The translations under genes and the position numbers were made by a program. DNA of 64,000 nt from an uncultured bacterium. GTDB taxonomy: Bacteria > Patescibacteriota > Minisyncoccia > Phycocordibacterales > DATDWN01. Positions within the stretch are counted from its first letter, which is position 1, and each line of letters begins with the position of its first letter. The stretch spans positions 8,455 through 72,454 of the forward strand of contig CAVSGX010000004.1 in assembly GCA_963727715.1 (NCBI GenBank), written 5' to 3'. The notes under the pieces are model-generated. The model did not search any database and was not told the DNA's origin. It saw only the letters and a list, made by a program, of their open reading frames with translations. This document shows positions 3,420 to 58,616 of the stretch, one piece after another.

Positions 3420-3445
3420 TGAATAACTGAGCCAACACATACAAA

Positions 3446-3470
3446 AAATACCGCCTAGGCGGTATTTTTT
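3446..3470. terminator. Bidirectional intrinsic terminator between the HTH gene and gatB
   Basis: aaaaaataccgcc tag gcggtatttttt: a perfect stem flanked by an A-run and a T-run. Confidence 0.7.
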
Positions 3471-3485
3471 GTTTTGTCATTTGTC

Positions 3486-4910
3486 TTACTTATTCAATAT
3501 TTCCAAGATGATCTTTTTCAAAATCTCCGGGTTAGCGCTACCTTTGCTTGCTTTCATCCCCTGCCCCACAAAAAACTGCAGAACCGATTCTTTACCGGAT
3601 TTATAATCGGCAACCACTTTTGGGTTTTCTAAAATTATTTCTTTTATTATTTTATTTAATTCTTCTGAATCATTTTTCTGAATTAAATTTTTCTCTTTGA
3701 CAATTTGTTCTGGCTTCCCACCAGATTCAAACATCATTTTCAAAATATCTTTGACCCCGCGAGAAGAAATATTTCCTTTCTTTTGCATTAAAATAAGTTG
3801 TTTAAAAGTAGTCGGAGTCACTTTACCGAAATCAAAATTACTTTCTCCAAAAGATTTTGAAAGACCCAATAAGTCGGATGTAATGTAGTTTGAAAAAGTT
3901 TGTAAAATATTTTTATCGGATATTCCTGTGGTTGCCTCTTCAAAAAACGTCGCTACTTTCGGGTTGTTGATGTAGACTTCCACATCTTCTTTTTTCAACC
4001 CTAAATCAGTCTCAAATCTTTTTCTTTTTTGCCATGGCAGTTCCGGCAATTCAGCTTTTAATTTTGCAATAGAAAATTCCGGTATTTCTGAAATGATTAA
4101 TTTTGGCAGATCCGGTTCCGGAAAATATCTGTAATCATGAGCAGATTCTTTTGATCGTTGGGAAAAAGTAATGCCTTTATTTTCATCAAAACCGCGAGTT
4201 TCTTGAACGACTTTTTCTCCCCTCTGAAGAAGAGATTTCTGTCTTTCAAATTCATATTCCACAGCCCGGCCTGCAGACCTAAAAGAGTTTATATTTTTAA
4301 CCTCTACTTTTGTGCCGAAAATATCAGAGTTTGAAATGGAAATATTTACTTCCACTCGCATTTCACCTTTTTCCATATTGGCGTCGGAAACTTGTAGGTA
4401 CTGTAGAAGCAATTGTAATTCTTGAGCAAACTTCATCACCTCTTCGGCTGAATGAATAACCGGTTCAGTTACCAGTTCTAGGAGTGGCACGCCGGCTCTG
4501 TTGTAGTCTACCAAACTGATATCCTTTGTATCGTGACTGGACCTGGCTGTATCTTCTTCAAGGTGGACGCGAGTCAACTTCACCCCGCATAGTCCCCCAC
4601 CGGAAACCAAAGGATATTTATACTGGCTGATTTGATAGCCTTTCGGTATATCCGGATAAAAATAATTCTTGCGATCAAACTCGGTAAAATCAGCCAAGTC
4701 GCTGCCGAGAGCTACGCCAACAAGCAAAACTTTTTTGACCGCCGATTTATTTATAACCGGCAAGGTGCCGGGATAACCCATACATATCGGACAAATATTT
4801 ATATTAGGTTCTTTCTCGTCCGGCACATTCAGACAACCACAAAACATCTTGGTTTTTGTCTTCAGTTCGGCGTGAATTTCCAGCCCAATAGTTATTTTGT
4901 AATCCTCCAT
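3486..4910 (-). CDS. gatB: Asp-tRNA(Asn)/Glu-tRNA(Gln) amidotransferase subunit B
   Basis: 474 aa. N-terminus YKITIGLEIHAELKTKTKMFCGC, then VDYNRAGVPLLELVTEP and a YqeY-like C-terminal tail, typical of GatB. Confidence 0.95.
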   Translation of the reverse strand: MEDYKITIGLEIHAELKTKTKMFCGCLNVPDEKEPNINICPICMGYPGTLPVINKSAVKKVLLVGVALGSDLADFTEFDRKNYFYPDIPKGYQISQYKYPLVSGGGLCGVKLTRVHLEEDTARSSHDTKDISLVDYNRAGVPLLELVTEPVIHSAEEVMKFAQELQLLLQYLQVSDANMEKGEMRVEVNISISNSDIFGTKVEVKNINSFRSAGRAVEYEFERQKSLLQRGEKVVQETRGFDENKGITFSQRSKESAHDYRYFPEPDLPKLIISEIPEFSIAKLKAELPELPWQKRKRFETDLGLKKEDVEVYINNPKVATFFEEATTGISDKNILQTFSNYITSDLLGLSKSFGESNFDFGKVTPTTFKQLILMQKKGNISSRGVKDILKMMFESGGKPEQIVKEKNLIQKNDSEELNKIIKEIILENPKVVADYKSGKESVLQFFVGQGMKASKGSANPEILKKIILEILNK

Positions 4911-4921
4911 ATGGAGTTATA

Positions 4922-5890
4922 TTACATTTTTTTCAAAATTTTTACCAGGTTTTCAGAAAGTTCTTTGACTGATTTATCGTCCAAAATAGAGACACCAAGA
5001 ACCGTCTTTTTTTGTTTTTCAAAAAGTTTCTGTCTAGCTTTAAGAGTCTTTTCGTCTATCAGATCTGTTTTGGTCAATAAAATGACCTCTGGTTTGTTCA
5101 AAAGCTCTTTATCATAAGCGTTTAATTCATCCTTTATCGTTTTATAAGCCGTTAAGGAGTCGTCAAATCCGCATGAAATGCAGTGTAGGAGCATCTTAGT
5201 GCGCGAAATATGTCTTAAAAACTTGTGGCCAAGCCCCTTTCCTTCCCCAGCACCTTCAATTAGACCCGGGATATCAGCAATAATATACCCATAAAGATTA
5301 CCGAGGTTTGGTGTGAGTGTGGTAAATTGATAACTGCCAACTTTGGCATTGGCATTTGTAATTGAATTGAGTAAACTGGACTTACCAGCATTTGGAAACC
5401 CTACTAAACCTATATCAACAATCATTTTTAACTCAATAAAGAATTGACCACTTTGACCATCTTTACCAAGGGTTCTTTCTTTAGGATTGATATTTTTTGA
5501 GCCCTTGAAATGAGCATTACCGTAACCACCATTGCCACCTTTCAAAAAGAATATTGGTTTTTCTGTCAACACCTCAATCTCGTCACCCATTTCGGTATTC
5601 TTTAAAACACTACCAAGCGGTAATTCCAGTATTAAATCATTCCCTGCCGCTCCATGCATACAATCACTTTTGCCGTTTTCACCATTTTCGGCCTTAAAAT
5701 CCTTTATGAAGCGATAGGCTGAGAGACGAGCAATATCTTGAACGCCCTTCAAATAAACATCACCGCCACGACCACCATCACCTCCACCCGGCCCGGCGTG
5801 ATCAATACCTTTGGTGTGCATCCAAGACACTACGCCGTCGCCACCGCGACCGGCAGATATATTAAGAGTTATCTCATCAATAAAAGCCAT
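4922..5890 (-). CDS. obg: GTPase Obg/CgtA
   Basis: FIDEITLNISAGRGGDGVVSW...GGGDGGRGGDVYL glycine-rich Obg fold, plus G-domain motifs GFPNAGKSSL and DIPGLIEGA. Confidence 0.95.
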   Translation of the reverse strand: MAFIDEITLNISAGRGGDGVVSWMHTKGIDHAGPGGGDGGRGGDVYLKGVQDIARLSAYRFIKDFKAENGENGKSDCMHGAAGNDLILELPLGSVLKNTEMGDEIEVLTEKPIFFLKGGNGGYGNAHFKGSKNINPKERTLGKDGQSGQFFIELKMIVDIGLVGFPNAGKSSLLNSITNANAKVGSYQFTTLTPNLGNLYGYIIADIPGLIEGAGEGKGLGHKFLRHISRTKMLLHCISCGFDDSLTAYKTIKDELNAYDKELLNKPEVILLTKTDLIDEKTLKARQKLFEKQKKTVLGVSILDDKSVKELSENLVKILKKM

Positions 5891-36654: not shown

Positions 36655-38508
36655 TCAATGCTGTTCAGGTTTATTTTTATCAATTGTGTCGTCCACATTA
36701 AGCACTTTACGCAAAACCTCTTCCGGCACTTCTTTCCCCGACGCTGGCGCGGCTGGGGTTTGGACGATTTCTTTTTTAATTCCGGGTTTTATTTCCGTTT
36801 TTATTTCCGGTTTATTCATAACTTGAGACAGAGCATTTTTCAAACTGGAAATATTTTCCACTGTCGGATTTTTTTTATTTTCACTTGAATTCAGAGTAGA
36901 TAATGAAGCTGTTTGCGCAGTTGGAGGATTCTTATTTGAATCTACTGGTTTTCTCTGCGAAAAAGATTTGTTGCGCAAATCTTCGGTGGCTTTTATAAAA
37001 GCCAACTTATTAGGATCAGGGGTTGCAATTGTTGGAGTATTGTTCTGGTTGTTATATTTCTCTTTCTCACTGAAAGGCTTGTTAAAAATCGGACGATTGT
37101 CGACGCTTCGCTGAGGAGATGCCGGCGCAGATAAGGGCATAGGCGAAAAGCTGGAACGTCCTGTTCCTATATTTCCGTCGCCTTGCCCACCACCAGCCAT
37201 TTTGTCTCTTTGGGCCGATGTCCCCTCTTCATGCCATTTTTTTATTTCTGCCTCGACTTCGCCCCGTGGTCGGGTAAACTGTTTCCACGAGCTTTCCATA
37301 ACTTCTTTTTTGAATGAGACATCCGGCCTAGTAATCGGTGGCATAGTGACAGCTGAAAACGGCGCTGAAGAAACTTCATCGATCATCAATTTCAAATAAA
37401 TTTGGTATTTGCCAAGATTGACCAAATCTTCGGCGGTGAAAGTTGGAGCGAATTCTTTTTCCAAAACTTCAGCATCAAAAGCGCCGACTCGAAATGTGAC
37501 CATGGTGCCAACGTTGCCGAAAACGGCGTCGCGCACTTCCTCTTCCATTTGCTCAATGTACTGATGTGTGATGTTTAAACCTAATTTGTACTTGCGGGCT
37601 TCGGACAAAATGTCGGCAAAAGATTTGTTGGCGAAAGATTGAAACTCGTCCACATACAAATAAAAATTCGGCAGTTTGGCTAATTGCTCTTTGTTTTTGT
37701 CCGCTCGAGACATGGCCGCCAAGTATATTTTTGTGATAAGCATTGAACCAATGAGGTTGGCATTGCCCTCACCAACAAGCCCTTTGGACAAGTTGATGAG
37801 CAATATCTTTTTCTCATCCATAAAATCGCGAATGTCAAAAGATGATTTCGGCTGGCCGATTAAATTTCGGACAAGCGGGTTTGATGTGAATTGTCCGACT
37901 TTGTTTTGAATAGCCGGTGTGGCTTCGGCTGCGTATTTGTCGGTGTATTTGGCAAATTCCTCCGTCCAAAAAGTTTTGACCGATGGATCTTTGATGTTCT
38001 CCACCACTTTTTTGCGATACTCTTTGTCAGCTAACATTCGATTAACACCAAGAAGTGTGGCACCCGGATATTCCAAGAGCGCCAAAAGAGTGTTGTTTAA
38101 AATGTAAGCCATGCGAGCTGACCAAGCATCCACCCAGATTTTCTCAAACGTGGACATGAGGCCGTTGACCACCAGATGTCTTTTGTCCACACCAATATCT
38201 TCCAAGACATTGAAAGAAACTGGATGTTCCAAATCAAATGGCGCGAAATAAAGCACATCTTTGATGCGATTTTCCGGGATGTAATCCAGCAGTTTTTCGG
38301 CCATTGAACCGTGCGGATCTATGACGGCGATACCGTTGCCATTTTGAATATCCTGGATGGCCATATTTTCCAAAAGATTGGACTTGCCAACGCCGGTTTT
38401 GCCGATAACATAAACATGACGCAAGCGATCGCTTTCTTTGATACCAAAACGGATTTTTTTGTTGCGAGCGTCCGTTTCGGCAAAATATGTGATGGGGTTT
38501 GGGTCCAT
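36655..38508 (-). CDS. VirD4/TraD/TraG-like (FtsK/HerA-superfamily) P-loop ATPase with a low-complexity C-terminus
   Basis: HVYVIGKTGVGKSN Walker A, LYVDEFQSF Walker B, and the LGLNITHQY pattern of type IV coupling-protein-like ATPases. Confidence 0.6.
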   Translation of the reverse strand: MDPNPITYFAETDARNKKIRFGIKESDRLRHVYVIGKTGVGKSNLLENMAIQDIQNGNGIAVIDPHGSMAEKLLDYIPENRIKDVLYFAPFDLEHPVSFNVLEDIGVDKRHLVVNGLMSTFEKIWVDAWSARMAYILNNTLLALLEYPGATLLGVNRMLADKEYRKKVVENIKDPSVKTFWTEEFAKYTDKYAAEATPAIQNKVGQFTSNPLVRNLIGQPKSSFDIRDFMDEKKILLINLSKGLVGEGNANLIGSMLITKIYLAAMSRADKNKEQLAKLPNFYLYVDEFQSFANKSFADILSEARKYKLGLNITHQYIEQMEEEVRDAVFGNVGTMVTFRVGAFDAEVLEKEFAPTFTAEDLVNLGKYQIYLKLMIDEVSSAPFSAVTMPPITRPDVSFKKEVMESSWKQFTRPRGEVEAEIKKWHEEGTSAQRDKMAGGGQGDGNIGTGRSSFSPMPLSAPASPQRSVDNRPIFNKPFSEKEKYNNQNNTPTIATPDPNKLAFIKATEDLRNKSFSQRKPVDSNKNPPTAQTASLSTLNSSENKKNPTVENISSLKNALSQVMNKPEIKTEIKPGIKKEIVQTPAAPASGKEVPEEVLRKVLNVDDTIDKNKPEQH

Positions 38509-38594: not shown

Positions 38595-38660
38595 AAAAAT
38601 TCAAAATTCAAAAACAAAAGAAAAAACAAATCGACAAGAGACAAGCTACCTTTTTGGAAA
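38595..38660 (-). promoter_or_regulatory. Conserved 3' flank of a DGR variable repeat (copy A)
   Basis: aaaaattcaaaattcaaaaacaaaagaaaaaacaaatcgacaagagacaagctacctttttggaaa is identical to 40605-40670 and 43419-43484. Confidence 0.6.
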
Positions 38661-39650
38661 TCACAAGAACGAGCGGGAGAGGCGACCACCCAGAGGCGGA
38701 TGGGAACTGGACGGAGCATCGGCACGGACACCGAGCCGGGAACCGGCGGGGTTCCAATAGGCGCAGACGACACGAAAGGAAGATGGGGCGGTTTTGTCAG
38801 GGTTTGGCACTTTAGACCCGGGCAAAGCGGTCCAGTAGTATAGACCATCTTTCTCGTTTTTGGTGTCTATGTGCTTGCCTGTTTGTTCAAAGATTTTTCT
38901 TTGCAGGATGAGATAATCGGACAGAGTTAGAGATTGGTTCGGAGGCAAGGAGAGAAAGGTTTCAATCTTTTTGTTCAGAGTTTGTTTAAGCTCTGATTGT
39001 TGCCAGAGTTCTTGACTGTGGACTAGAACGATTCTTCTTTTTTTGTCTTCTATTACTCCTTCAAACCCGCCACCCGAGTTGAAATTGCTTCCGGTGTATG
39101 TTTCGTTGTATCCTTCCGACATTTTAGCGTTTAGGTCTGTCAGGTTTGGCAGAGTTTCCGGAATGAGCAGGATTGTGTCAAAACCGTGTTTTTCTATTTC
39201 TTCTCTGATTTGGTCAATGTTTCTTTCCCAGATGTTTTTCATCGTCTCGGAGAAGTCTTTCGGTCTGTCTATGGAGTGGGTTGTGTAAAAGGAAGTAAAG
39301 TATTCTATTTCTTTTTCAATATCTATGGTTATGGTTTCTTTCTTTTCTTCAGTGGTTGTTTTGCCGGTTTTTTCGTCTTTTGTCTCTTCGATATGTTTGT
39401 ATTCCACTTCTAGAGTTGTTGAGGATTTGCCTTCTATCTTTCTTTTGAGAGAACGGCATTGGGAGAGTGTTTCTTTGATTTTCAGGCTTAGTTCTTTCTG
39501 TTTCTCTGTATCTCCGCTCTCAATGGCTTTTAGGAGTTTATCTTTCATTTCTTCGGCCTGAGAGAGCAGGCCTTCCATTACGGTCAAGTCGGCCAGAGCT
39601 TGTTCTTTGGTTGGTGGAGAGTTTGGGATTTTGGGAGATTCGTGGGACAT
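38661..39650 (-). CDS. DGR target protein 1 (cytoplasmic, coiled-coil N-terminus, C-terminal variable CLec-like region)
   Basis: 329 aa. Identical to the 40671..41660 product except for the last 32 aa or so (VVCAYWNPAGSRLGVRADAPSSSHPPLGGRLSRSFL), which overlie the VR. Confidence 0.85.
   Translation of the reverse strand: MSHESPKIPNSPPTKEQALADLTVMEGLLSQAEEMKDKLLKAIESGDTEKQKELSLKIKETLSQCRSLKRKIEGKSSTTLEVEYKHIEETKDEKTGKTTTEEKKETITIDIEKEIEYFTSFYTTHSIDRPKDFSETMKNIWERNIDQIREEIEKHGFDTILLIPETLPNLTDLNAKMSEGYNETYTGSNFNSGGGFEGVIEDKKRRIVLVHSQELWQQSELKQTLNKKIETFLSLPPNQSLTLSDYLILQRKIFEQTGKHIDTKNEKDGLYYWTALPGSKVPNPDKTAPSSFRVVCAYWNPAGSRLGVRADAPSSSHPPLGGRLSRSFL
38664..38771 (-). repeat. DGR variable repeat VR-A
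   Basis: Aligns to the TR (43071-43177). By hand count it differs at 15 TR-adenine positions plus one non-A position (tgt>ggt). Confidence 0.85.
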
Positions 39651-39666
39651 AATGGATGGATGATAA

Positions 39667-40347
39667 TCAGTCTAATTTTATTAATTTCTTTGTCAGAACA
39701 GGAATTTCTTTTTGAAAAAAAGTTTTGACCGAATTCCAATCAGCGTCAAAAAAGATGACCGGCTCTGGATCGCTTTCGGCATCGTCAAAATAAACCATAC
39801 TTTTCAAGATATGGTGATAGTCGTGAGCCACAGACGGATACTGTCCCGGCAATCGTCTGATAATATTTTCCAGCGGTTCCACATTTTTGGCGCACCAGTA
39901 CAAATCAAAGAAATCTCTTTTTCTGCCTCTTTGCGAGCTGGCGATTATTTTCATCACGGCCACATCCGTTTTATTCAAAATTTTGACAAAACCGTATTCC
40001 AAAAATTTTTGTTTTGGAATAAAAAACGGATAAGCGATAAAACTGATTTTGGTGTCATACAATACGCCATATAAAGTGTTTGGTTCATCAATATCCGTGC
40101 TCCAATTTTCATTGCTTGCAAAACGAGATAACAGTTTCTTTGTTATAAAACTTTTTTCTGTGGTAAAAAAATCCAAATCAACAGATTTGCGATTGCCGGC
40201 CTGCAAAGCTAAGGCGGTGCCACCGGCCAGATACCAGCCTGATTCACTCAGCCATTCTTGGGTTGATAAAAAATCCAGAGCTGTTTTGGTTGATTTGGGT
40301 AAACATGAAAAGTTGATGATATTTAATTTTGAAGTGTCAGTGTCCAT
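39667..40347 (-). CDS. Nucleotidyltransferase AbiEii/AbiGii-like toxin family protein
   Basis: WYLAGGTALALQAGNRKSVDLDFFT is the family N-terminal signature. Confidence 0.65.
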   Translation of the reverse strand: MDTDTSKLNIINFSCLPKSTKTALDFLSTQEWLSESGWYLAGGTALALQAGNRKSVDLDFFTTEKSFITKKLLSRFASNENWSTDIDEPNTLYGVLYDTKISFIAYPFFIPKQKFLEYGFVKILNKTDVAVMKIIASSQRGRKRDFFDLYWCAKNVEPLENIIRRLPGQYPSVAHDYHHILKSMVYFDDAESDPEPVIFFDADWNSVKTFFQKEIPVLTKKLIKLD

Positions 40348-40547
40348 AATGCTTTTGTTCTTGGTCTCAAAGACCGTGATGCAGAAACAACTTTTCTCAA
40401 CAATGCCTTGTCATAAAAATTCCAAAGCCAGCGAACCTCATTATCCCTGCCAAAATCTAAAATTCTCTCAATTATATATTGAGCGTTTTTTTCAGTGTCA
40501 ATTCTGCTGACATCGGTGTCCCAAAACAAAGATTGTCTAAATGGCAT
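40323..40547 (-). CDS. Small partner protein of the AbiEii-like NTase (putative antitoxin-like)
   Basis: 74 aa. LFWDTDVSRIDTEKNAQYIIERILDFG pattern. Overlaps the NTase start by 25 nt, which suggests translational coupling. Confidence 0.5.
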   Translation of the reverse strand: MPFRQSLFWDTDVSRIDTEKNAQYIIERILDFGRDNEVRWLWNFYDKALLRKVVSASRSLRPRTKALWTLTLQN

Positions 40548-40670
40548 ACCTTCATTATATCAAATTTTGAGACAATATTCAACAAAAATCAAAATGCAAA
40601 AATAAAAAATTCAAAATTCAAAAACAAAAGAAAAAACAAATCGACAAGAGACAAGCTACCTTTTTGGAAA

Positions 40671-41660
40671 TCACAAGAACGAGCGGGAGAGGCGACCACC
40701 CAGAGGCGGATTGGAAATGGACGGATCATTGGCAACGACATTGAGCTGGGAACCGTCGGGGTACCAATGGGCGCAGACGACACGAAAGGAAGATGGGGCG
40801 GTTTTGTCAGGGTTTGGCACTTTAGACCCGGGCAAAGCGGTCCAGTAGTATAGACCATCTTTCTCGTTTTTGGTGTCTATGTGCTTGCCTGTTTGTTCAA
40901 AGATTTTTCTTTGCAGGATGAGATAATCGGACAGAGTTAGAGATTGGTTCGGAGGCAAGGAGAGAAAGGTTTCAATCTTTTTGTTCAGAGTTTGTTTAAG
41001 CTCTGATTGTTGCCAGAGTTCTTGACTGTGGACTAGAACGATTCTTCTTTTTTTGTCTTCTATTACTCCTTCAAACCCGCCACCCGAGTTGAAATTGCTT
41101 CCGGTGTATGTTTCGTTGTATCCTTCCGACATTTTAGCGTTTAGGTCTGTCAGGTTTGGCAGAGTTTCCGGAATGAGCAGGATTGTGTCAAAACCGTGTT
41201 TTTCTATTTCTTCTCTGATTTGGTCAATGTTTCTTTCCCAGATGTTTTTCATCGTCTCGGAGAAGTCTTTCGGTCTGTCTATGGAGTGGGTTGTGTAAAA
41301 GGAAGTAAAGTATTCTATTTCTTTTTCAATATCTATGGTTATGGTTTCTTTCTTTTCTTCAGTGGTTGTTTTGCCGGTTTTTTCGTCTTTTGTCTCTTCG
41401 ATATGTTTGTATTCCACTTCTAGAGTTGTTGAGGATTTGCCTTCTATCTTTCTTTTGAGAGAACGGCATTGGGAGAGTGTTTCTTTGATTTTCAGGCTTA
41501 GTTCTTTCTGTTTCTCTGTATCTCCGCTCTCAATGGCTTTTAGGAGTTTATCTTTCATTTCTTCGGCCTGAGAGAGCAGGCCTTCCATTACGGTCAAGTC
41601 GGCCAGAGCTTGTTCTTTGGTTGGTGGAGAGTTTGGGATTTTGGGAGATTCGTGGGACAT
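40671..41660 (-). CDS. DGR target protein 2 (paralog of target 1)
   Basis: 329 aa. C-terminus VVCAHWYPDGSQLNVVANDPSISNPPLGGRLSRSFL. Confidence 0.85.
   Translation of the reverse strand: MSHESPKIPNSPPTKEQALADLTVMEGLLSQAEEMKDKLLKAIESGDTEKQKELSLKIKETLSQCRSLKRKIEGKSSTTLEVEYKHIEETKDEKTGKTTTEEKKETITIDIEKEIEYFTSFYTTHSIDRPKDFSETMKNIWERNIDQIREEIEKHGFDTILLIPETLPNLTDLNAKMSEGYNETYTGSNFNSGGGFEGVIEDKKRRIVLVHSQELWQQSELKQTLNKKIETFLSLPPNQSLTLSDYLILQRKIFEQTGKHIDTKNEKDGLYYWTALPGSKVPNPDKTAPSSFRVVCAHWYPDGSQLNVVANDPSISNPPLGGRLSRSFL
40674..40781 (-). repeat. DGR variable repeat VR-B
   Basis: Differs from the TR at 9 adenine positions (hand count) plus the same tgt>ggt change. Confidence 0.85.
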
Positions 41661-41672
41661 GGAAGTATTCTA

Positions 41673-42700
41673 TCATGTTATAACAATATCATTCAATATT
41701 GAAGTCAGTTTGTTTTTTAATCCAAATGAATCGCAGTGTTTCAGTAAAGCAAAATAAGACTGAAAATTATTCTTGTTCATTCTTTCAAAAATTTTTTGCT
41801 TGGTTTTATCTCTCAATAAAAGACAATCTGGCAAAGTCAGAGATCCTAGAAAATCTACTCCCCATTTTAATTTTCTGATTGAGATTTTATCATCCGGGAT
41901 TTGCAGAAACAGTTTTGCCATAAATTTTTTAATTTCAACCAAACAAAACCCCAATCTTTTTTTATTTTTATTTACCAAAATAAAATCGTCGTTGTATCTT
42001 ATATAAAATCTGGCGTTTAATTTTTTCTTCACAAAATGGTCAAAATCGTTCAAATAAATGTTGGCGAAAATCTGGCTGGTGATGTTGCCGAGCGGGATGC
42101 TTTTGTCAGAGCCATGAAGCGAGCAAAAACTTTCTACTATTTTCCCCACTTCCAAAAAAATATTTTCATTTTTCACTTTTCTTTTGATAAATTTCAGCAG
42201 TAGGCGGTGGTTGACACTTTCAAAGTATTTTTTGACATCGCATTTTAAAATAAAAACATCCCCATTTTTTCTTTTCGCCAATCCATTGAAATATTGGAGA
42301 GTTTTGACGGCTTTATGCGTTCCTTTTCCGTCTCTGGATGAATAACGGCTTTATGCGTTCCTTTTCCGTCTCTGGATGAATATGAGTCGGCAATAAATGC
42401 CGGCTCAAATAGATTTTTCAAATAATCGGATATTATTTGATGAATAATTCTATCTTTAACTTCAGCTTTGTGAATATTTCTTTTCTTGTTGTCAGTAACA
42501 ATAAAATGCGAATACCCGCCATGGCGGTAAGTTTTGTTTTTCAGATCTCTGTGCAAATCAAAAATATTGTCTTCCAAATGTCTTTCAAAAATCATTACAT
42601 CCATCTTGGAGGACTTTCCCCGCCGAAATTTCCGCCAAGCTGAAAATATATTATCAAGACTGAATAATTCGTTATAATTTTTATGGAACAAGACGCTCAT
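41673..42700 (-). pseudogene. DGR reverse transcriptase, frame broken by a 38-bp tandem duplication
   Basis: Motifs SYSSRDGKGTHKAV, FILKCDVKKYFESVNH, IPLGNITSQIFANIYLN (DGR-type GxxxSQ) and YIRYNDDFILV (YxDD). Deleting one copy of 42307-42344 restores a 329-codon ORF. Confidence 0.85.
42307..42382. repeat. Perfect 38-bp tandem duplication inside the RT gene
   Basis: acggctttatgcgttccttttccgtctctggatgaata occurs twice in a row (42307-42344 and 42345-42382). Confidence 0.9.
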
Positions 42701-42718
42701 AAAATTGAAAAATTGGAA

Positions 42719-43057
42719 ATGCCTATTATGGCCAAACTCTTTATCATTTACGAACTGACGCACAAGCTTATTTTCAAATTGCCGAAATTTGAAAGATACA
42801 CTTTGGGTGAAAAAATTGAAAATATCATCTTGGAAACGATTGAAATAATTGTCATCGCCAATGGGACGAACAAATACGAAAAAGAAAAATATTTGCTCAA
42901 AGCCAATGCCAAAGTGGAAATGCTTAAGTTGCTTTTTCGCATCGTTTTGAACTGCCAAATCATTGATTTCAAAAAATATTTGGAGGCGGAAGGGTTGCTT
43001 CAAGAAATCGGCAAAATGGCGCAAGGTTGGATAAAATACACCAGAAACGCAAAATAG
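42719..43057 (+). CDS. avd: DGR accessory variability determinant (four-helix-bundle, 23S rRNA-IVS-protein family)
   Basis: MPIMAKLFIIYELTHKLIFKLPKFERYTLGEKIENIILETIEIIVIA...LLQEIGKMAQGWIKY matches the Avd/four-helix-bundle pattern. It is on the opposite strand to the RT, TR and targets. The start could be 42683, 42719 or 42728. Confidence 0.7.
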   Translation: MPIMAKLFIIYELTHKLIFKLPKFERYTLGEKIENIILETIEIIVIANGTNKYEKEKYLLKANAKVEMLKLLFRIVLNCQIIDFKKYLEAEGLLQEIGKMAQGWIKYTRNAK

Positions 43058-43070
43058 CTTTTGTATAAAG

Positions 43071-43177
43071 CAAGAACGGCGGGAGAGGCGACAACCCAGA
43101 TTCGGATTGGAATTGGACGGATCATTGGCATTGACATTGAGCTGGGAATTGTCGGGGTTCCAATTGGCGCAGACGAC
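43071..43177 (-). repeat. DGR template repeat (TR)
   Basis: Sense (minus) strand: gtcgtctgcgcc AAT tgg AAC ccc gAc AAT tcc cAg ctc AAT gtc AAT gcc AAT gAt ccg tcc AAT tcc AAT ccg AAT ctgggttgtcgcctctcccgc. It holds 21 adenines, mostly in AAT codons. All three VRs vary at these positions. Confidence 0.9.
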
Positions 43178-43409
43178 TGCGGTCGCCCCTCGATTAGCTT
43201 TGCGTCGTCATTTCCGTTTGGAAACAAGACTCTATTTATTAGGGGCTACTTCCCCCTGACGCAAAACTGCTGTTCTTGTGTTTTATTTCCACAAATCAAC
43301 GACTATTTGGTTTCTAAAATTCAGAAACCATCTTTCGCCGTCAATTAGCGCTTCGGCAAACCAACTCATCACTGATGGCTTACGAGCCGAAGCGGGCGAT
43401 TTTTGCTTC
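43178..43409 (-). other. Structured non-coding spacer between target 3 and the TR (candidate 5' part of the TR RNA)
   Basis: Nested stems: ttgcgtc..gacgcaa, gggg/cccc, tttcc/ggaaa, ggtttct/agaaacc and gcgcttcggc/gccgaagcg. A minus-strand TTGACG-17-AATTTT promoter-like signal is present. Confidence 0.4.
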
Positions 43410-43484
43410 GCAAAAATAAAAAATTCAAAATTCAAAAACAAAAGAAAAAACAAATCGACAAGAGACAAGCTACCTTTTTGGAAA

Positions 43485-45512
43485 TCACAAGAACGAGCGG
43501 GAGAGGCGACAACCCAGATTCGGATAGGAATAGGACGGATCATCGGCACCGACAACGAGCTGGGAATAGCCGGGGTCCCAATGGGCGCAGACGACGCGGA
43601 AACCGCCGGATGGATTTTTGACTGTTGAGCCGGGTAGCCATGTCCAACCGTCTTCATCCAAATGTTTGCCTGTTTGTTCAAAATATTGCTTTTGATACAA
43701 CAAATAATCTGTCAGAGACATTTTTTCACCTTGCGATATAAACTCCTCGGCTTTTTTATTCAGAGTTTTCTTCAGTTCCGAATGGTCTTTCAGATTTTGA
43801 GCGCTGTTTTTATGAATCAAAACGATTCTTCTTTTTTTGTCTTCTATTACTCCTTCAAACCCGCCACCCGAGTCGAAATTGCTTCCGGTGTATGTTTCGT
43901 TGTATCCTTCTGACATTTTTTTATGTATATCGGTTATGGTCAATCCTCCGGGCACAAGCAAAATCTCATCAAAACCATATTTTTCTACTTCTTGTTTTAT
44001 CTCGTCATAATTGTTCACCCATATATCCGCCATTTCTTCCGCAAATGATTCCGTCAATTCAATTTCGTGAGCTTTATAAAAAAGAAGAGAATCCTCAAGT
44101 TTTTTGTCAAAATTTATTTCTATTTTCTCTTTCTTTTCTTTGCCTTTCTCGTCCACGATTTTGTGTTCGGCAGAAACCACCGGTTCAAACGAACTGCCGG
44201 TCAATTCTCTTCTTTTACTTCTGAAAAATTTCTCCAAATCGGCTATTTCATTTTCAATCTTCTCTATCCCGTCCGCCGGACTTTCGGTTTTACCACCTTC
44301 AGGAATTGCCTCAGCAGACGCTTCTTTTTCTTCTTCGTTATTTTTCTTTTTTCTTTTCGTTCCTTTGCGTTTGGAATCTTTGGTTTCTATTTTGACTTCA
44401 ACCAATCGGATGATTTCTTCCAATTTTGTTCTGTCTTCGGCGCTTTCCAGTCTGTTGACATAATAATATTTCAGGGCTTTTTGAAAAGTTTCGCTGATGT
44501 CGCCATTGTAAAAACGCAAAACAAAATTTCTGACCCGCCTCGGCTCTTCGCGGTCGTCATAGGTGAAAACTTGTGGTTGATCTTCGGCGATTTGCCTGTT
44601 TTTCAAAAGTTCTTTGGCGGTTTTGTGAAATTCCTTGTATTTTTCCAAAATTTCGGCAATGCCTGGAATTTCCGAAAGTTGTTCCTGCGTCAAACCACCG
44701 GCGCCGGATAAAAACATATCATCAGGCAATTCGGCGGTTTTCTTTTCCAAACCGTTCTCTAAACCAAACAATGCACCAGTCGCTTGCTTAAAGGTCTCTT
44801 CCGGTAATTCATTTGGCATTTTTTTATAAACCCATCTGCGAAGCTGAGCTGGATCAAGTGGCTTTCTATCCAAATAACCGGCTCCCGGAGGATTCATAAA
44901 AGCGATGATTTTGGTTTTTTGTTTAGAAACTTTAACTGTTTCCGAAGCGTCTTCTGACAAAATGACATCGCTATCACGCTCCAGAGAATCCAAAACTTCA
45001 TGCAAACGAATCAAAATGTTCGGCGCCGATGAGTTGAATTCGTCCAAAACAATAATTTTGACTTTACCGTCTTCCTGTCGTAAACCGCTAGTTACTTTTC
45101 CGTCGGCGAAAATGTATTCCGGGTCTTCCGCATTATTTTTACGAGGATTTGGTATATATCGGCCCATCAAATCCTCCACATCCGTGGCACCGTTTAAGTT
45201 TATGTAATGAACTTCGTAGCCGAGCTCACTGGCCATTTTTCGCACCGTGGTGGTCTTACCAAAAGATGTTCCGCTTTCCACGGCAATAGGGTCGCCCATG
45301 GAAAACGACACGGCGATGTCACGTTGCAGTGGCAGAGCCACTTCGGTATCATTGGTGTAGTCCTTGTAATTTTCTCTTCTTGGCACAAATTGGCCATTTC
45401 TGTTTTTAGCTTTTTCCAGAGTAACACCCATATAAGAAACACTCCCGTCAGTTTCCATTATCGGCTCCAGTTTTGCTTCCGGATTGTTAAATTGTCCTTC
45501 TGGTGTTTTCAT
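43485..45512 (-). CDS. DGR target protein 3: AAA+ (MoxR/AAA_5-like) ATPase fused to the target C-terminal module
   Basis: 675 aa. GTSFGKTTTV Walker A, IIVLDEFNS Walker B. The C-terminal 230 aa or so is homologous to targets 1/2 (KMSEGYNETYTGSNF.SGGGFEGVIEDKKRRIVL). It ends VVCAHWDPGYSQLVVGADDPSYSYPNLGCRLSRSFL. Confidence 0.85.
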   Translation of the reverse strand: MKTPEGQFNNPEAKLEPIMETDGSVSYMGVTLEKAKNRNGQFVPRRENYKDYTNDTEVALPLQRDIAVSFSMGDPIAVESGTSFGKTTTVRKMASELGYEVHYINLNGATDVEDLMGRYIPNPRKNNAEDPEYIFADGKVTSGLRQEDGKVKIIVLDEFNSSAPNILIRLHEVLDSLERDSDVILSEDASETVKVSKQKTKIIAFMNPPGAGYLDRKPLDPAQLRRWVYKKMPNELPEETFKQATGALFGLENGLEKKTAELPDDMFLSGAGGLTQEQLSEIPGIAEILEKYKEFHKTAKELLKNRQIAEDQPQVFTYDDREEPRRVRNFVLRFYNGDISETFQKALKYYYVNRLESAEDRTKLEEIIRLVEVKIETKDSKRKGTKRKKKNNEEEKEASAEAIPEGGKTESPADGIEKIENEIADLEKFFRSKRRELTGSSFEPVVSAEHKIVDEKGKEKKEKIEINFDKKLEDSLLFYKAHEIELTESFAEEMADIWVNNYDEIKQEVEKYGFDEILLVPGGLTITDIHKKMSEGYNETYTGSNFDSGGGFEGVIEDKKRRIVLIHKNSAQNLKDHSELKKTLNKKAEEFISQGEKMSLTDYLLYQKQYFEQTGKHLDEDGWTWLPGSTVKNPSGGFRVVCAHWDPGYSQLVVGADDPSYSYPNLGCRLSRSFL
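43488..43595 (-). repeat. DGR variable repeat VR-C
   Basis: Differs from the TR at 11 positions, all TR adenines (hand count). Confidence 0.9.
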
Positions 45513-45515
45513 ATT

Positions 45516-45917
45516 TTATGAACGATAAACCGGCCCAACTTTGTCTATAATTTCAAAACTTCTTTCTTTCAATTTCGCCAAAACGCTTTCCGTAGCGACC
45601 AAAACCAAAACCTGACTTTGATAATCAGGTGAAAAAACTTTTGATTCATTTTTTTCTTTATCAAAAATCTCAACTTGACCTGTCGGATACTGCGCGACAA
45701 AATCATATAAGTCCTTCGGTAGATTTTCGTCCAAAACCAGATACATTTTTTGAAAACCAAAAAAATCAAAAACATTTTTTGATGTTTGAAATCCACTATC
45801 TTCAAAAAACTTGATAAAACCACCCATCTCGCTTTCATCCCGCGCCAAAACAAGTCCGACATCTTTTTGTCCTTTCAAGATATCCAGAAACTCATGCAGA
45901 CCTTCGTTTTTGTTCAT
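45516..45917 (-). CDS. Hypothetical protein between the vWA and AAA genes
   Basis: 133 aa, no recognisable motif. Tight spacing (stop at 45516, next start at 45512) suggests an operon. Confidence 0.5.
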   Translation of the reverse strand: MNKNEGLHEFLDILKGQKDVGLVLARDESEMGGFIKFFEDSGFQTSKNVFDFFGFQKMYLVLDENLPKDLYDFVAQYPTGQVEIFDKEKNESKVFSPDYQSQVLVLVATESVLAKLKERSFEIIDKVGPVYRS

Positions 45918-45956
45918 AGTTGTATTCTAACACTAACCGGAAAATTATCAAATTTT

Positions 45957-48242
45957 TCAACCAACAACTTCTTTCTCAAGTATTTCTGATATATCTTTTA
46001 TTATTTTGTCCACTTTTATATTATCGGATTTTAGCGGGTAATAAATAAGCTTTACACCGCCGGCTTTTTCGATTTTGCCTTTAATTTTTTGAAAATCATA
46101 TTTTGAGCCGGGATGTTTAGTGGATTCAGCTGGTCTGTCATCCGAAAAAACAATCATTATTTTGTTGTCTGTTTTTTGTTTTGCAAGTCTTGCCGAAGCG
46201 GTTTCCATAGCCCAACCAATGTCGGTTTCATTATGCTCATTTCCGCAATTTTTGCAACAACTATCTTCAACCTCTTTAAACATTCCTCCCATGTGTTCCC
46301 TGATTTTTTTTGACATTGGCTCTCCAAATTTTTGATACTCGTATATATCATCATTAAAACCGTTAATTTCAACGTTCAATCCTAGTTTGTTTAATGCTTC
46401 AGCCAGCACAACTTTTGCTTTGAAATCTTCTTCAATTTTTTTACGCATAGAACCAGATAAATCGTTTAGAATGGAAATTGAATATTCTTTTTCATCTGGT
46501 TTTTCTCTTTTTTGCCAAGCGTTGCTTTCTATTGGCGAAATGCGTCTGGCTTTTTCCTGAATCCTTGTTTTTATATCAATTCTTTTGCCTATTCTAAAGC
46601 CCTTTTTCCATCTTGTGGTTTGGGTGTCAACAAATATCTGTCTTAGTTTATTTTCCAATTCATCAATCAGCGACGAAACTTCTCGTCGGTGCTTTTCATA
46701 AATATTTTCGTCTTTATTGACTTCTCTTTTTAATCTTTCTTTGTATATTCTCAATCCTTCCAAATCAAGAGGTTCTTTTCTTAAAGTTCCGGTTCTGACC
46801 GGAGCGCCGCCTTGATTTTGATTGTTTATTTCAACCCCTGGCAAATTTTCCGGCGGTTCTGGATTTTTTCTTTCTGCTTTTTCCTCCGGATTTTCAGTCA
46901 ATTTGCCTTCCATTTCTTCGTTTAGTTTGTCTTCAAATTCCTTCAGCGCTTTTTCGGCTCTGTCGGCCAGCTCTTTTTTCACATCTTCCGGAAGCGAGTC
47001 GACATAATCCCTTATTTTTTGTTTTATTTCGTCGGAAAGGTCGTTCAGGTTTATTGTCCTCGCACCGATATCGTCTAGCGTCTGTGGTTGTTCATTGCCG
47101 GTGTTGTCTTCGTGTGGAGTCGGCTTGTTTGTGATTTTATCTTCTCCCTGCCCACCTGTTGACATTGGTTTGATTTTTTCTTTCTCTTTTTTTGCTTCAT
47201 CAATAGCTTTGTCAATAGCATTTTCCAACGTTTTCTTTTCTTCTTCGGTTAATTTGTCTTCCAAATCTTTTGGCAGTTTTGATTTTTTTTCATTTTTTTT
47301 ATCTTCACTTTCTCCTTCCTGATTTCCGTTATCTTTTTGTCCATCACCACCTTCCTTCCCATTTTCTCTTTCTTGCTCTTTTTTCATTTCTTCCATCATC
47401 TTTTTCATCACATCTTTCAACACTTCTTCCATTTTCTCATCCTCTTTATCTGCTTCAACCAGTTTTTTAAATTCTGGCCAAATTTCTTCCAGATTTATTT
47501 CATACGACACTTTGGCGTATTCTTTTATTTTTTCTTCACTTTCATCCGCTTCCTCTCGCGACGGATATCGCCACCAAGAATCCTGAGCTGATTTCAGTGT
47601 GGCTAAAACAACAGCTTTGACTTCTTCGGGCAAATCTTCCGAAATTTCAAAATTCTGTCCCTGTTTTTCACGAAACCATTGTCTAATATATTCATACCCC
47701 GCTTGCACAAAACGCGGTTGGAAACCCAGTTTTTCGGTAGCTTCTTTCTTTTCTTTTTCTCTTTTGGCAAAAAAATCATCCCAAGCAAATTTTATATTTT
47801 CATCGTATTTCGGATAACTCTCGGAAACAAAGTTGTCGTTTCTGGGATCTTCAATGAAATTCATCATAGCTGAAAAGCCCGGTTGTCGCCATGTTTCAAT
47901 CGGAATAAAATCTGTTCTGGAAACTCGTCTATGTCCTCCTTCGTGACAAATTAAATATCTCAATAATTCAATTGGCTCCGTCAGCAGAGTTTTCGGGTCA
48001 ACTCTGATGACATTTTTTTGAAAATCCCAATGCCAGCCAGCGCCTGGTTGGTTTAGTTCTATCGGCATCTCAAAATCTTTGCCAATAAAATAAGCCAGAG
48101 ATGACAAAATATTTTTCTTGCGCAGAATTTCTTTTTGTTCTTCTTCGTTAAATCGCTTCAAGATTTCCTCTTCTGGATTTTGCCGGAGAGAATCGTAGGT
48201 TTGTTCGTTTTGATTGAATTTTGGTCCTTCCATAATTTGCAA
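45957..48242 (-). CDS. vWA-domain protein with N-terminal HExxH metallopeptidase-like domain (DUF2201-like MoxR partner)
   Basis: 761 aa. LICHEGGHRR (HExxH), a long E/K-rich linker, and a C-terminal vWA with MIDAS LNDLSGSM and ..IMIVFSDD. Confidence 0.7.
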   Translation of the reverse strand: MQIMEGPKFNQNEQTYDSLRQNPEEEILKRFNEEEQKEILRKKNILSSLAYFIGKDFEMPIELNQPGAGWHWDFQKNVIRVDPKTLLTEPIELLRYLICHEGGHRRVSRTDFIPIETWRQPGFSAMMNFIEDPRNDNFVSESYPKYDENIKFAWDDFFAKREKEKKEATEKLGFQPRFVQAGYEYIRQWFREKQGQNFEISEDLPEEVKAVVLATLKSAQDSWWRYPSREEADESEEKIKEYAKVSYEINLEEIWPEFKKLVEADKEDEKMEEVLKDVMKKMMEEMKKEQERENGKEGGDGQKDNGNQEGESEDKKNEKKSKLPKDLEDKLTEEEKKTLENAIDKAIDEAKKEKEKIKPMSTGGQGEDKITNKPTPHEDNTGNEQPQTLDDIGARTINLNDLSDEIKQKIRDYVDSLPEDVKKELADRAEKALKEFEDKLNEEMEGKLTENPEEKAERKNPEPPENLPGVEINNQNQGGAPVRTGTLRKEPLDLEGLRIYKERLKREVNKDENIYEKHRREVSSLIDELENKLRQIFVDTQTTRWKKGFRIGKRIDIKTRIQEKARRISPIESNAWQKREKPDEKEYSISILNDLSGSMRKKIEEDFKAKVVLAEALNKLGLNVEINGFNDDIYEYQKFGEPMSKKIREHMGGMFKEVEDSCCKNCGNEHNETDIGWAMETASARLAKQKTDNKIMIVFSDDRPAESTKHPGSKYDFQKIKGKIEKAGGVKLIYYPLKSDNIKVDKIIKDISEILEKEVVG

Positions 48243-54296: not shown

Positions 54297-54353
54297 TTGG
54301 AGGACACACCTCCATTAAATAAAATATCACAATAAAATAATAAAGTCAAATTG

Positions 54354-54427
54354 TGCGCGTGCCAGGACTCGAACCTGGGACCTCGTCATTATCAGTGACG
54401 TGCTCTAGCCACCTGAGCTACACGCGC
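54354..54427 (-). tRNA. tRNA-Ile (anticodon GAU), CCA not encoded
   Basis: Minus sense: GCGCGTG TAGCTCAGGTGGCTAGAGCA CGTCA CTGATAA TGACG AGGTC CCAGG TTCGAGT CCTGG CACGCGC A. All four arms pair. Confidence 0.9.
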
Positions 54428-55590: not shown

Positions 55591-56087
55591 CCAAAAATTA
55601 GTGCTGGATCTCCCAGGGTCATTTATATTTCTGTTCCAAACATCCGAATCGAGATTTTCGATAAGATTTATCGTGTGCTTCCTTCTGACTCACCGCAGAA
55701 GTCGCACATCTCTTTTTTTTGATTCGGCTGCTCTTTGCTACTAGGATCCTTCAGTCCAGTCATTGCTGATTGTGGACCTACCCGTTCGCTATTTTCACAC
55801 TCCTGTGAAAAGTTGGATTTGAACCAACTAGATATATAAACTGCCTGGCGCATTTTATTCTGAGTACAAGACTTGAGAACGTATTCACCGCGGTATGTCT
55901 GACCCGCGATTACTAGCAATTCCAACTTCATGGGGTCGAGTTTCAGCCCCCAATCTGAACTGGGGCGACTTTTCTAAGGATTGGCTCAGGGTTACCCCGT
56001 CGCAACCTGTTGTAGTCGCCATTGTATTATGTGTGTAGCCCAAGGTATCAAAGGGACATGCTGATCTGGCGTCATCCTCGCCTTCCT

Positions 56088-56197
56088 CCCAGCTCCAGTT
56101 GCGCAAGATGAACGAACTCGGTTAAGACCGAATACGGACATCGATGTTTGCACAGAGAGACATCTACTTATGATGTTCTTGTGCAACTGGAGCTGGG
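56088..56197 (-). other. Expanded helix-40 hairpin of 16S (about 110 nt)
   Basis: cccagctccagttgcgcaaga (56088-56108) pairs with tcttgtgcaactggagctggg (56177-56197). This replaces the short CCAGU-GAUA-AACUGG helix of E. coli. Confidence 0.65.
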
Positions 56198-56425
56198 CAG
56201 TCTCGCCTGATACTTATAACAGACAACGAGGGTTGCGTTCGTTACCCCACTTAAGGGAACAATTCAAATCACGAACTGACGACGACCATGCATCACCTGC
56301 CTAACTGTCCTTGTGGGACCGCAAACGTTTCTGCTTGCATTCAGTTAGGTTTCAAACCTTGGTAAGATTCTTCGTTTATCATCGAATTAAACCACATAAT
56401 CCACTGCTTGTGCAAGTCCCCGTCT

Positions 56426-56457
<32 letters not shown>

Positions 56458-56641
56458 ACCCAGGCGCTTGACTTAACGCGTTAGCTACGCCACGCAGAGG
56501 GTCGATACTCCGCATAGCTAGTCAAGATCGTTTAGGGCGTGGACTACTGGGGTCTTAATGTTACTTCAAAATTTTGGGAAATTTTGAGGCACAACATTTC
56601 TGTTGTACTCTGCATGTTGCCATGCAGTTCGGACTATATCT

Positions 56642-57403
56642 TTATCTGTATGTATTCCACTTAGCTTTTTTCTTTTCATATTCTGCTATTATGACAGATT
56701 CTGAAAAATTACTAAGAGAAACCATTTCAGATATCCAGCGTTCTTGAAATTGAGAGTTTTTATATAGAAGAATTGCTTTGGATAACATGCTCGATACTGG
56801 TATGTATGGCAGTATGATACGCAAGAATTTTTTTAATTCTTCTTGTGACCTAATCCATAACCGCCAGTATTGTTCTTGCTTCCCATCTTGCTTACGCCCG
56901 ACGGGGGCAACAATGGCACGAACATCCCAAACAACTTTAAGATAGCGAGCTAGCATTTCGACTGATTGTTTTGAAAAACCATCAGTACAAAACACACCTT
57001 TTCTGGCGCCGTAACCAATAAGCGAACCGTCATCACACCACCAAACGGCGAGTGATAACGCTGTCATTTGATTAAGCCACCTACGCTCTATAAGCAATTT
57101 ATTTTGTTTGTGAGTTAAATGATGAAGTTCTGTAAGAGATGAAGTTCGCCTACTGGCAAATCTCCATTTTTTGTTCTTACTGTATCCATCAGGTTCCTGC
57201 ACAAACACACTGCTATCTCCTGCTATCTCTTTGAGAGCTTGCGCTTTCCATAAGAGATAATCTTTCTGCATTTCCGAATGACGAATTTGTAAATTCGCAT
57301 TGAAATAATTTTTTTGGATTTTTAGCGAGCCGTCTCCAAGGATTGAACCGAAGATAATAGCTTTCGCTTCATCCGACAAAGGCACATATTTCGTATCATG
57401 CAT
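56642..57403 (-). CDS. LAGLIDADG homing endonuclease (double-motif)
   Basis: 253 aa. IIFGSILGDGSL and LAVWWCDDGSL motifs. Confidence 0.85.
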   Translation of the reverse strand: MHDTKYVPLSDEAKAIIFGSILGDGSLKIQKNYFNANLQIRHSEMQKDYLLWKAQALKEIAGDSSVFVQEPDGYSKNKKWRFASRRTSSLTELHHLTHKQNKLLIERRWLNQMTALSLAVWWCDDGSLIGYGARKGVFCTDGFSKQSVEMLARYLKVVWDVRAIVAPVGRKQDGKQEQYWRLWIRSQEELKKFLRIILPYIPVSSMLSKAILLYKNSQFQERWISEMVSLSNFSESVIIAEYEKKKAKWNTYR

Positions 57404-57697: not shown

Positions 57698-58616
57698 CCA
57701 AAAATTAGTGCTAGAAACTTCCCTCGGGGTTGTCCATACGAAATCAGTAAATTTCATATTGTATGGAGTTTCCCCGATATAGCTAGATTACAATTCTATG
57801 TCACCATAGAAAAGAGACACCTTCGTCCTATATTTTATTAGCGGGACTGGATTATCTAATCCCATTCGCTACCCACGCTTTCGTGTTTCAGTGTCAGGAG
57901 TGGCCCAATGTGCTGCCTTCGCTTTCGGTGTTCCCCATGATATCAACGGATTTCACCCCTACTCCATGAGTTCCACACATCCCTGCCATCCTCTAGTCGT
58001 GCCGTTTCGCTCGCACTTCCGGGGTTAAGCCCCGGGTTTTAACAAGCGACTAACACAACCACCTACACACCCTTTACGCCCAATAATTCCGGATAACGCT
58101 CGGGGCACTCGTATTACCGCTGCTGCTGGCACGAGTTTAGCAACCCCTTATTCTTGAGGTACTATCAATAAACTTTCTCCCTCACAAAAGATGTTTACGA
58201 CCCAGAGGGTCTTCATCCATCACGCGGCGTCGCTCGATCAGGCTTTCGCCCATTGTCGAATATTCTCGGCTGCTGCCACCCGTAGGTGTATGGACCGTCT
58301 CTCAGTTCCATCGGTGGGGGCCAAGCTCTCACTCCCCCTACGCGTCATAGCCTTGGTAGGCCGTTACCCTACCAACTAGCTGATACGACGCAGACTTTTC
58401 CTTTAGCGATAAATCTTTCCTCCGAAGAGAATATCAAGTATTACCTAATCTTTCGACTAGCTATTCCTGACTAAAGGGTAAATCTCTGCGCATTATTACC
58501 TCGTTCGCCACTGTCCTTGCGGACCGTTTGACTTGCATGCCTTATCCACGCCGCCAGCGTTCATCCTGAGCTAGGATCAAACTCTTAATAAAGATTTATT
58601 AAGATCTATCTTTTAA

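Follow-up and report, generated by a model that had tools for sequence, protein, structure and literature searches.

How can a diversity-generating retroelement (DGR) that lacks a structured RNA between its template repeat (TR) and its reverse transcriptase (RT) gene copy that one template into three genes, and is the copy at hand still active? The locus that raises these questions lies in the 64,000-nucleotide stretch that we analyzed (the window; positions 8,455 to 72,454 of contig CAVSGX010000004.1, assembly GCA_963727715.1), from an uncultured bacterium of the Patescibacteriota. At window positions 38595–45512 it carries, in minus-strand order, a target gene ending in a variable repeat (VR), a leader RNA followed by the TR, a reversed avd gene, the RT gene, a second target gene with a VR, a toxin-antitoxin pair, and a third target gene with a VR. 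We consider it about 90% probable that this is a chromosomal Patescibacteria DGR in which an RNA of leader plus TR is copied into the three VRs, and we infer that the leader primes the copying.

The repeats were re-derived by repeat finding and gapless re-alignment, and enrichment of changes at adenines was scored with a hypergeometric p value. The TR is a non-coding, gapless 99-nt core at 43079–43177 on the minus strand. The VRs lie on the same strand, at the 3ʹ ends of three genes: VR-C at 43488–43595 (gapless core 43497–43595) in target C, VR-B at 40674–40781 (core 40683–40781) in target B, and VR-A at 38664–38771 (core 38673–38771) in target A. An earlier reading of the sequence (the original prediction) drew these repeats slightly longer, including 8–9 nt past the boundary. 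VR-C differs from the TR at 11 positions, all of them TR adenines (p = 3e-9). VR-B differs at 10 positions, nine adenines and T85>G (p = 1.5e-6), and VR-A at 16, 15 adenines and the same T85>G (p = 4e-12). Pooled over the three VRs, 35 of 37 differences fall on the TR's 21 adenines, and the remaining two are one shared site, T85G, which turns TGT into GGT (Cys to Gly). The original prediction had counted 11, 9 and 15 adenine differences and a single shared tgt>ggt change in VR-A and VR-B, and the re-alignment reproduced all of these; the tabulation by TR base that it proposed shows enrichment at adenines with p values from 1e-6 to 1e-12. Over the three VRs, 35 of 63 adenine cells have changed, with G in 17 of them, C in 10 and T in 8. 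The adenines were also correctly said to sit mostly in AAT codons: the A-bearing codons of the TR are eight AAT and one each of AAC, GAC, CAG and GAT. A stop codon cannot be reached from any of these, and together they permit ~2.5e12 protein variants per target. None of the three VR reading frames is disrupted.

Could the three VRs have diverged by ordinary mutation or by gene conversion between paralogues, with no retrohoming? The paralogues are clearly homogenized, with identical flanks in the window and identical copies in a sister element. However, neither process accounts for the restriction of changes to template adenines, and the same pattern recurs among relatives: a scan for TR/VR pairs in 85 loci (84 related loci and the window's own region) found A-biased pairs in 62, many of which have 2–3 VRs. 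This explanation is thus refuted, and we give it next to no probability. The sister element, with 63% RT identity, comes from three assemblies (L001–L003) and has the gene order AAA target, TR, reversed avd, RT, 318-aa target, DUF6922, AbiEii, 318-aa target. All of its VR differences are at A, and its VR-1 sequence differs between two samples whose RT protein and TR are identical. In one of the three assemblies (L001, metagenome-assembled genome [MAG] GCA_037134875.1), the three VRs and ~1 kb around each are 100% identical (1–1012, 2701–3712 and 4647–5658), and the left end is a copy of the 318-aa paralogue where L002 and L003 have the AAA target. The identity within L001 is probably an assembly collapse of repeats.

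At the 3ʹ limit of mutagenesis, a GC-rich GTCGCCTCTCCCGC is common to the TR and the VRs; it is followed by TCGTTCTTG-TGA in the VRs and by CGTTCTTG in the TR. Each of the three VRs reads CTCCCGC-T-CGTTCTTG across the boundary, where the TR has CTCCCGC-CGTTCTTG. This 1-nt difference, which had been noticed before and likened to an initiation of mutagenic homing (IMH)/IMH* pair, is confirmed and is kept in relatives, namely the sister element, L004 and one L005 VR. Judged from its sequence, the boundary has the form of an IMH in the VRs and a non-identical IMH* in the TR.

The proteins point the same way. The RT gene (41673–42699, minus strand; ATG at 42699, stop at 41673) is interrupted by a perfect 38-nt tandem duplication (42307–42344 and 42345–42382), to which we return below; with one copy removed it encodes 329 aa. 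The repaired RT matches Pfam RVT_1 and has more than 1100 relatives of ~327 aa, to which it aligns without a gap at the lesion. It has every residue that is invariant across the relatives, IPLGNITSQ and RYNDD included; the DGR-type LGNITSQ and YNDD motifs named in the original prediction are therefore present. Of the proteins with solved structures, bRT of Bordetella phage (8ub7, 6e-28) is the nearest to it, ahead of the best group II RT (1.5e-17). Assignment to group II, retron or defence-associated RT (DRT) families was rejected, with scores far under the curated NCBIfam cut-offs. The closest genome-encoded RTs (40–56% identity) are nearly all from Patescibacteria-labelled MAGs, in a ranking by similarity rather than a tree; the best genome matches are to Taylorbacteria, Saccharibacteria, Paceibacterota, Komeilibacteria and similar groups.

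An Avd-like gene between the repeats had been predicted, and two profile libraries confirm it. The 124-aa product of avd (42683–43057) matches Pfam bAvd (1.4e-17, 64.5 bits, cut-off 40) and, over its full length, NCBIfam DivGenRetAVD (5e-19, 68.5 bits, yet under the curated cut-off of 80). The gene reads along the plus strand, antisense to both TR and RT gene, and shares 17 nt (42683–42699) with the RT gene where the two begin. A promoter-like site for avd (42651–42678, plus strand) lies inside the RT coding sequence. Neither the opposite strand of avd nor the interruption of the RT gene appears in the original prediction. Wherever a search of the close loci detected avd (~47 loci, all but L031), the gene is reversed and abuts the RT gene; these loci are mostly Patescibacteria-labelled, and distant loci mostly have a forward avd. 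A divergent overlap of the avd and RT starts, of up to ~18 nt, occurs in many close relatives (tblastn; for example, L004–L009 and L011). The order TR-(avd)-RT is architecture B3, found in 90% of the DGRs of Candidate Phyla Radiation (CPR) bacteria (Wu et al. 2017, PMC5758913), and the window's order, with avd on the reverse strand, matches this normal CPR layout.

Target C (43485–45512, 675 aa, minus strand) joins an N-terminal MoxR/midasin-like AAA_5 ATPase (Pfam AAA_5 5e-12; Walker A GTSFGKTT, Walker B IIVLDEFN) to a C-terminal VR-bearing domain. Over its last 223 aa it shares 56% identity with targets A (38661–39650) and B (40671–41660), which are both minus-strand genes for 329-aa proteins with a coiled-coil hairpin and a C-type lectin (CLec)-type domain; A is identical to B outside the VR. 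In a predicted model, the VR-bearing domain adopts a CLec/formylglycine-generating enzyme (FGE) fold that resembles the DGR targets TvpA (6.6), Mtd (5.4) and TaqVP (4.8) and many animal C-type lectins. The VR, residues 294–326, forms the last strands of the modelled domain, which would place it at the C-terminus of a CLec-fold target. The targets are without signal or transmembrane domains. Hence, independent tests support the identification as a DGR: the A-specific mismatches, an RT closest to bRT, Avd, the CLec-type fold and the GC-rich boundary.

What takes the place of a spacer RNA? Directly 5ʹ of the TR, on the same (minus) strand, is a structured RNA domain of ~210 nt (43186–43395) that was absent from the original prediction. 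It comprises helix P1 in two parts (43350–43393, 12 bp), variable hairpins at 43309–43329 and 43276–43294, helix H2 (43258–43268 paired with 43196–43206, 10–11 bp), and inner hairpins at 43241–43257 and 43211–43224. Strand a, AAGAACAGC (43269–43277), is followed by an invariant A at 43268 and pairs with the IMH*-like 3ʹ flank of the TR, strand aʹ, GCCGTTCTT (43072–43080). The VR-to-TR intergenic regions of 19–24 loci were aligned, and helices were counted on 25 sequences. RNAalifold found compensatory changes in 18 of 22 predicted leader pairs and, de novo, a helix between AAGAAC(N)GC just 5ʹ of H2 and GC(N)GTTCTT in the TR 3ʹ flank. Over the three helices, 89.6% of cells are paired, as against 77.6% after shuffling and 36–52% when the partner strand is slid. 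The covariation score is 0.444, a value reached by none of 500 shuffles (0.207), while slid partners give at most 0.128. H2 is 97.8% paired, and three positions of helix a/aʹ show covariation (AU12/GC12, UA7/AU4 and GC19/AU5). A covariance model of the domain, R1, has 43186–43395 as its only strong match in the window (156 bits, E 2e-33). It has one strong match per close locus, in every case on the RT strand and just 5ʹ of the TR, with non-seed loci included; in L010 the match is only weak and partial.

Downstream of the TR, by comparison, RNAalifold predicted 0 conserved pairs in 21 loci, and the antisense avd showed neither an excess of synonymous conservation nor suppressed synonymous variation at its 3ʹ end. 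Right after aʹ there is a weak hairpin, GCTTT-ATACA-AAAGC (43052–43071, minus strand; GCTTTATACAAAAGC), followed by TATTTT, a U-run; stronger hairpins occupy the same site in L005, L015 and L026. A hairpin and U-run in this place may fit an RNA that ends just past the TR, before it would run antisense into avd. Rfam searches at gathering and permissive thresholds (E ≤ 10) gave no relevant match for the leader RNA.

The BPP-1 DGR offers a paradigm for how such an RNA might act. In its cryo-electron microscopy structure, TR118–121 pairs with spacer nucleotides Sp53–56, ending in the priming A56, and this primer duplex stacks on the avd:Sp59–70 “cPRT Stop” duplex; the authors' survey of other DGRs took in no more than 40 nt upstream of the TR and 100 nt downstream (Handa et al., bioRxiv 10.1101/2023.10.23.563531). 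The window's RNA has the same helix topology, with a duplex at the 3ʹ end of the TR stacked on a duplex that uses sequence just upstream of the TR, but the strand equivalent to Sp is upstream of the TR, so that the order is permuted. Following BPP-1, a complex of RT and Avd would copy the RNA of leader and 99-nt TR, misincorporating opposite the 21 template adenines, and the cDNA would take the place of the homologous 3ʹ-terminal VR in each of the three genes, re-randomizing 12 codons on a CLec-like surface. Helices a/aʹ and H2 would be the counterparts of the BPP-1 template:primer and cPRT-Stop duplexes, with H2 as the stop element. Cis-priming would start from the leader, with the invariant A43268 as the candidate nucleotide, and not from a spacer downstream of the TR. 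The reversed-avd layout could then work without spacer RNA between TR and RT because the leader would supply cis-priming.

Does the leader prime, or does it serve some other purpose? It might recruit RT and Avd, stabilize the transcript or act in regulation, with priming achieved otherwise, for example from the 3ʹ-OH of a nicked RNA or from a downstream element. Helix a/aʹ is short (7–9 bp) and mismatched in half of the loci, as would suit such a role, and an energy-only duplex test in distant CPR lineages, where TR ends are inconsistently anchored, told nothing either way. Nonetheless, a/aʹ stops no more than 2 nt from the limit of TR/VR identity in the window and the nearest relatives (in L020–L026 this identity continues into aʹ), and it stacks directly on H2, as in BPP-1. 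The region downstream of the TR is antisense avd coding sequence without conserved structure. We regard a leader that does not prime as a credible reading but one with distinctly less than an even chance.

Behind the VRs is a second conserved element. The 66-nt flank after the VR-C stop codon (43419–43484, minus strand) is identical behind all three VRs (3ʹ flanks of targets B and A, 40605–40670 and 38595–38660) and contains TAGCTTG TCTCTTG at 43459–43472. This tandem heptamer is thus present in the window at 38635–38648, 40645–40658 and 43459–43472, on the minus strand. Close relatives have a tandem (G)TAGCTTGTAGCTTG(A) at 3–25 nt past the end of TR/VR homology, and a heptamer pair with at most 3 mismatches follows 34 of 58 VRs (loci L001–L019, L027–L030, L051 and L076). 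Outside the VR context there are 36 matches in 375 kb, nearly all at the 3-mismatch limit, an enrichment of ~100-fold behind VRs. What follows the VRs is a direct tandem heptamer, in contrast to the GC hairpin of BPP-1. A search for a BPP-1-like GC-rich hairpin behind the window VRs found only weak AT-rich stems further downstream, which are not conserved; such hairpins occur in only 34% of DGRs (Wu et al., PMC5758913). The position and recurrence of the heptamer suggest that it may be a target-site mark replacing the hairpin.

Together, these observations lead us to a tentative proposal, which we hold to be reasonable but somewhat improbable: CPR-type DGRs use a circularly permuted RNA in which the module for RT/Avd binding, priming and stop lies 5ʹ of the TR, closed via a/aʹ and priming at A43268, with the heptamer in place of the GC hairpin. 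Potential novelty here is confined to the leader RNA and the heptamer, and both concern the whole lineage rather than the window locus alone; neither is described in Rfam 15 or in the DGR literature that we covered, which did not extend to Paul et al. 2017.

Several points weigh against our reading of the locus. The RT reading frame is broken in the only assembly available, and activity in the genome is unproven. Priming from the leader is argued from analogy with BPP-1. In 13 loci, the window included, the middle of helix a/aʹ is mismatched (A.C or U.C). Because the covariation counts come from related sequences, significance is overstated by the shuffle controls, and the slid-partner control is the fairer one. 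Finally, VR-A and VR-B share their three 3ʹ-most changes (AA>CC at 76–77 and T85>G; 38673–38697 and 40683–40707), which VR-C lacks, while the 12 sites that distinguish the two lie further 5ʹ; if each copy had simply been homed independently from the present TR, the changes at 76, 77 and 85 would be expected to have been reset. Conversion tracts halted inside a mismatched VR core, homing tracts starting upstream of position 85, and a change in the TR are all possible explanations.

Is the element a dead relic, its RT a genuine pseudogene and its VR differences no more than a trace of past activity? The 38-nt duplication frameshifts the RT after ...GKGTHKAV and splits the region into two ORFs, with fragments of ~160 aa and 202 aa. 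The assembly thus has no intact RT reading frame, although removal of one copy restores it. The gene call in the deposited 204,555-nt public record is the 202-aa RT fragment only (P0003), and hence the lesion belongs to the deposited assembly. Over half of the candidate DGRs of Wu et al. were discarded for defects such as premature stops (PMC5758913). On the other hand, the two 38-nt copies match perfectly, and outside the lesion the RT has lost none of its invariant residues; no damage is seen in avd, TR, leader RNA or any of the three VR frames; and the duplication could be an assembly artefact or a minority variant. Two scans of JGI metagenome contigs, one with a degenerate TR/VR pattern, found no other copies of the element. 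Because the duplication frameshifts the RT, current activity is not assured. If there was inactivation, however, it was extremely recent, since targets A and B have no differences outside the VR. Either the loss of activity is very recent, or assembly or population variation has produced the duplication as an artefact. A dead relic is a serious possibility, to which we assign a little less than even odds.

That diversification was recent follows from the comparison of targets A and B. The 1056-nt blocks 38595–39650 and 40605–41660 differ at 12 positions, all in the VR at TR-adenine sites, and are identical at the remaining 1044. The original prediction took these two targets for recent duplicates, which is doubtful. 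Two target copies around a toxin-antitoxin pair are also present in the sister element, again identical to each other. Conservation of this arrangement at 63% RT identity makes homogenization by gene conversion a better fit than recent duplication. Since the copies are homogenized and yet their VRs differ, VR rewriting is later than the last homogenization. The pair nested between targets B and A, DUF6922 (40323–40547) and an AbiEii nucleotidyltransferase (39667–40347), both Pfam matches on the minus strand, resembles a toxin-antitoxin system and holds the same position in the sister element (L001 3756–4636). It is probably a passenger and not part of the DGR.

Upstream of target C, on the same strand (45516–48242, minus), are a 133-aa ORF without a family match and a 761-aa protein with a HEGGH zincin-like motif and a C-terminal VWA/CobT_C domain. 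The latter protein and the AAA_5 target form a MoxR-VWA-like pairing; the corresponding neighbor in L002 is a transglutaminase-core protein. Directly downstream of target A is a gene for a 617-aa VirD4/TraG/HerA-like P-loop ATPase (36655–38508, minus; T4SS-DNA_transf, TrwB_AAD_bind, DUF87), and the other neighbors near target A are housekeeping genes (glycosyltransferases, pyruvate kinase). The 16S rRNA gene is split, with Rfam matches at 55812–56668 and 57762–58592 (minus strand) and between them a ~1.1-kb insertion with an ORF for a 253-aa LAGLIDADG_2 endonuclease (56642–57403); tRNA-Ile(GAT) is at 54353–54427. A 16S gene split by such an endonuclease-coding insertion is a CPR hallmark, typical of CPR rRNA operons. 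PADLOC found no defence system in the window other than AbiEii; its further matches were generic RT/DRT matches for the RT and weak mad8/HerA ATPase matches.

What does this locus add? As a DGR, very little: the window element is an ordinary member of the catalogued class of CPR DGRs, because its reversed avd, AAA-fused target and several VRs are all documented or common for that class. It also carries a caution, in that a textbook-looking DGR may have a disabled RT, and VR differences alone are no proof of current activity. The comparative work suggests how the commonest CPR architecture could function without a spacer between TR and RT. If this is true, the geometry of cis-priming would be universal among DGRs while the connectivity of the RNA is free to vary, and a defined RNA of ~330 nt (43072–43395) would be at hand for reconstituting a CPR DGR.

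How does the element compare with known systems? Relative to the BPP-1 DGR (mtd-avd-TR-brt), it is alike in the A-specific transfer from TR to VR, the (I/L)GxxxSQ motif of the RT, the presence of Avd, a CLec-fold target with a C-terminal VR, and a 14-nt GC-rich boundary element. In contrast to BPP-1, avd is encoded on the other strand, no structured spacer separates TR from RT, there is no match to RT-10, the Rfam motif that represents the BPP-1 spacer (PMC5737381), and the targets are three cellular, apparently cytoplasmic proteins rather than one phage tail fiber. The NTPase-CLec “antigen sensor” or conflict systems of multicellular bacteria (PMC10907252) likewise combine a P-loop NTPase with a diversified C-terminal CLec domain, next to a toxin-antitoxin pair and a VWA/HExxH protein. 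Their resemblance to target C has limits, since the window's NTPase is a MoxR-like AAA_5 protein, not a STAND NTPase, and the host is a CPR bacterium.

The closest fit is to the DGRs of the CPR. CPR DGRs belong to cellular clade 2 and have targets without recognizable domains (Roux et al. 2021, PMC8144416), and the UVR4 class of targets matches the Midasin AAA domain (PMC5758913). The window element resembles these DGRs (B3, UVR4, clade 2) in its reversed avd, its Patescibacteria RT relatives, its several targets per TR, the lack of signal and transmembrane domains in the targets, and its one AAA_5 (midasin-type) target. The VR domain of UVR4 was unclassified in 2017 and the one described here is modelled as FGE/CLec-like; the likeness to UVR4 is by AAA class. 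The B3 layout and the RT relatives bear out the original prediction of a DGR of a type frequent in CPR genomes. Its view of one TR with three targets as a rich example holds for the number of targets, but not as something exceptional: one TR serves 2–3 VRs in ~15% of DGRs overall (PMC5758913), and among the closer relatives with several VRs, ten have two and three have three. There is no essential difference between this element and other CPR DGRs; the window's copy has a frameshifted RT.

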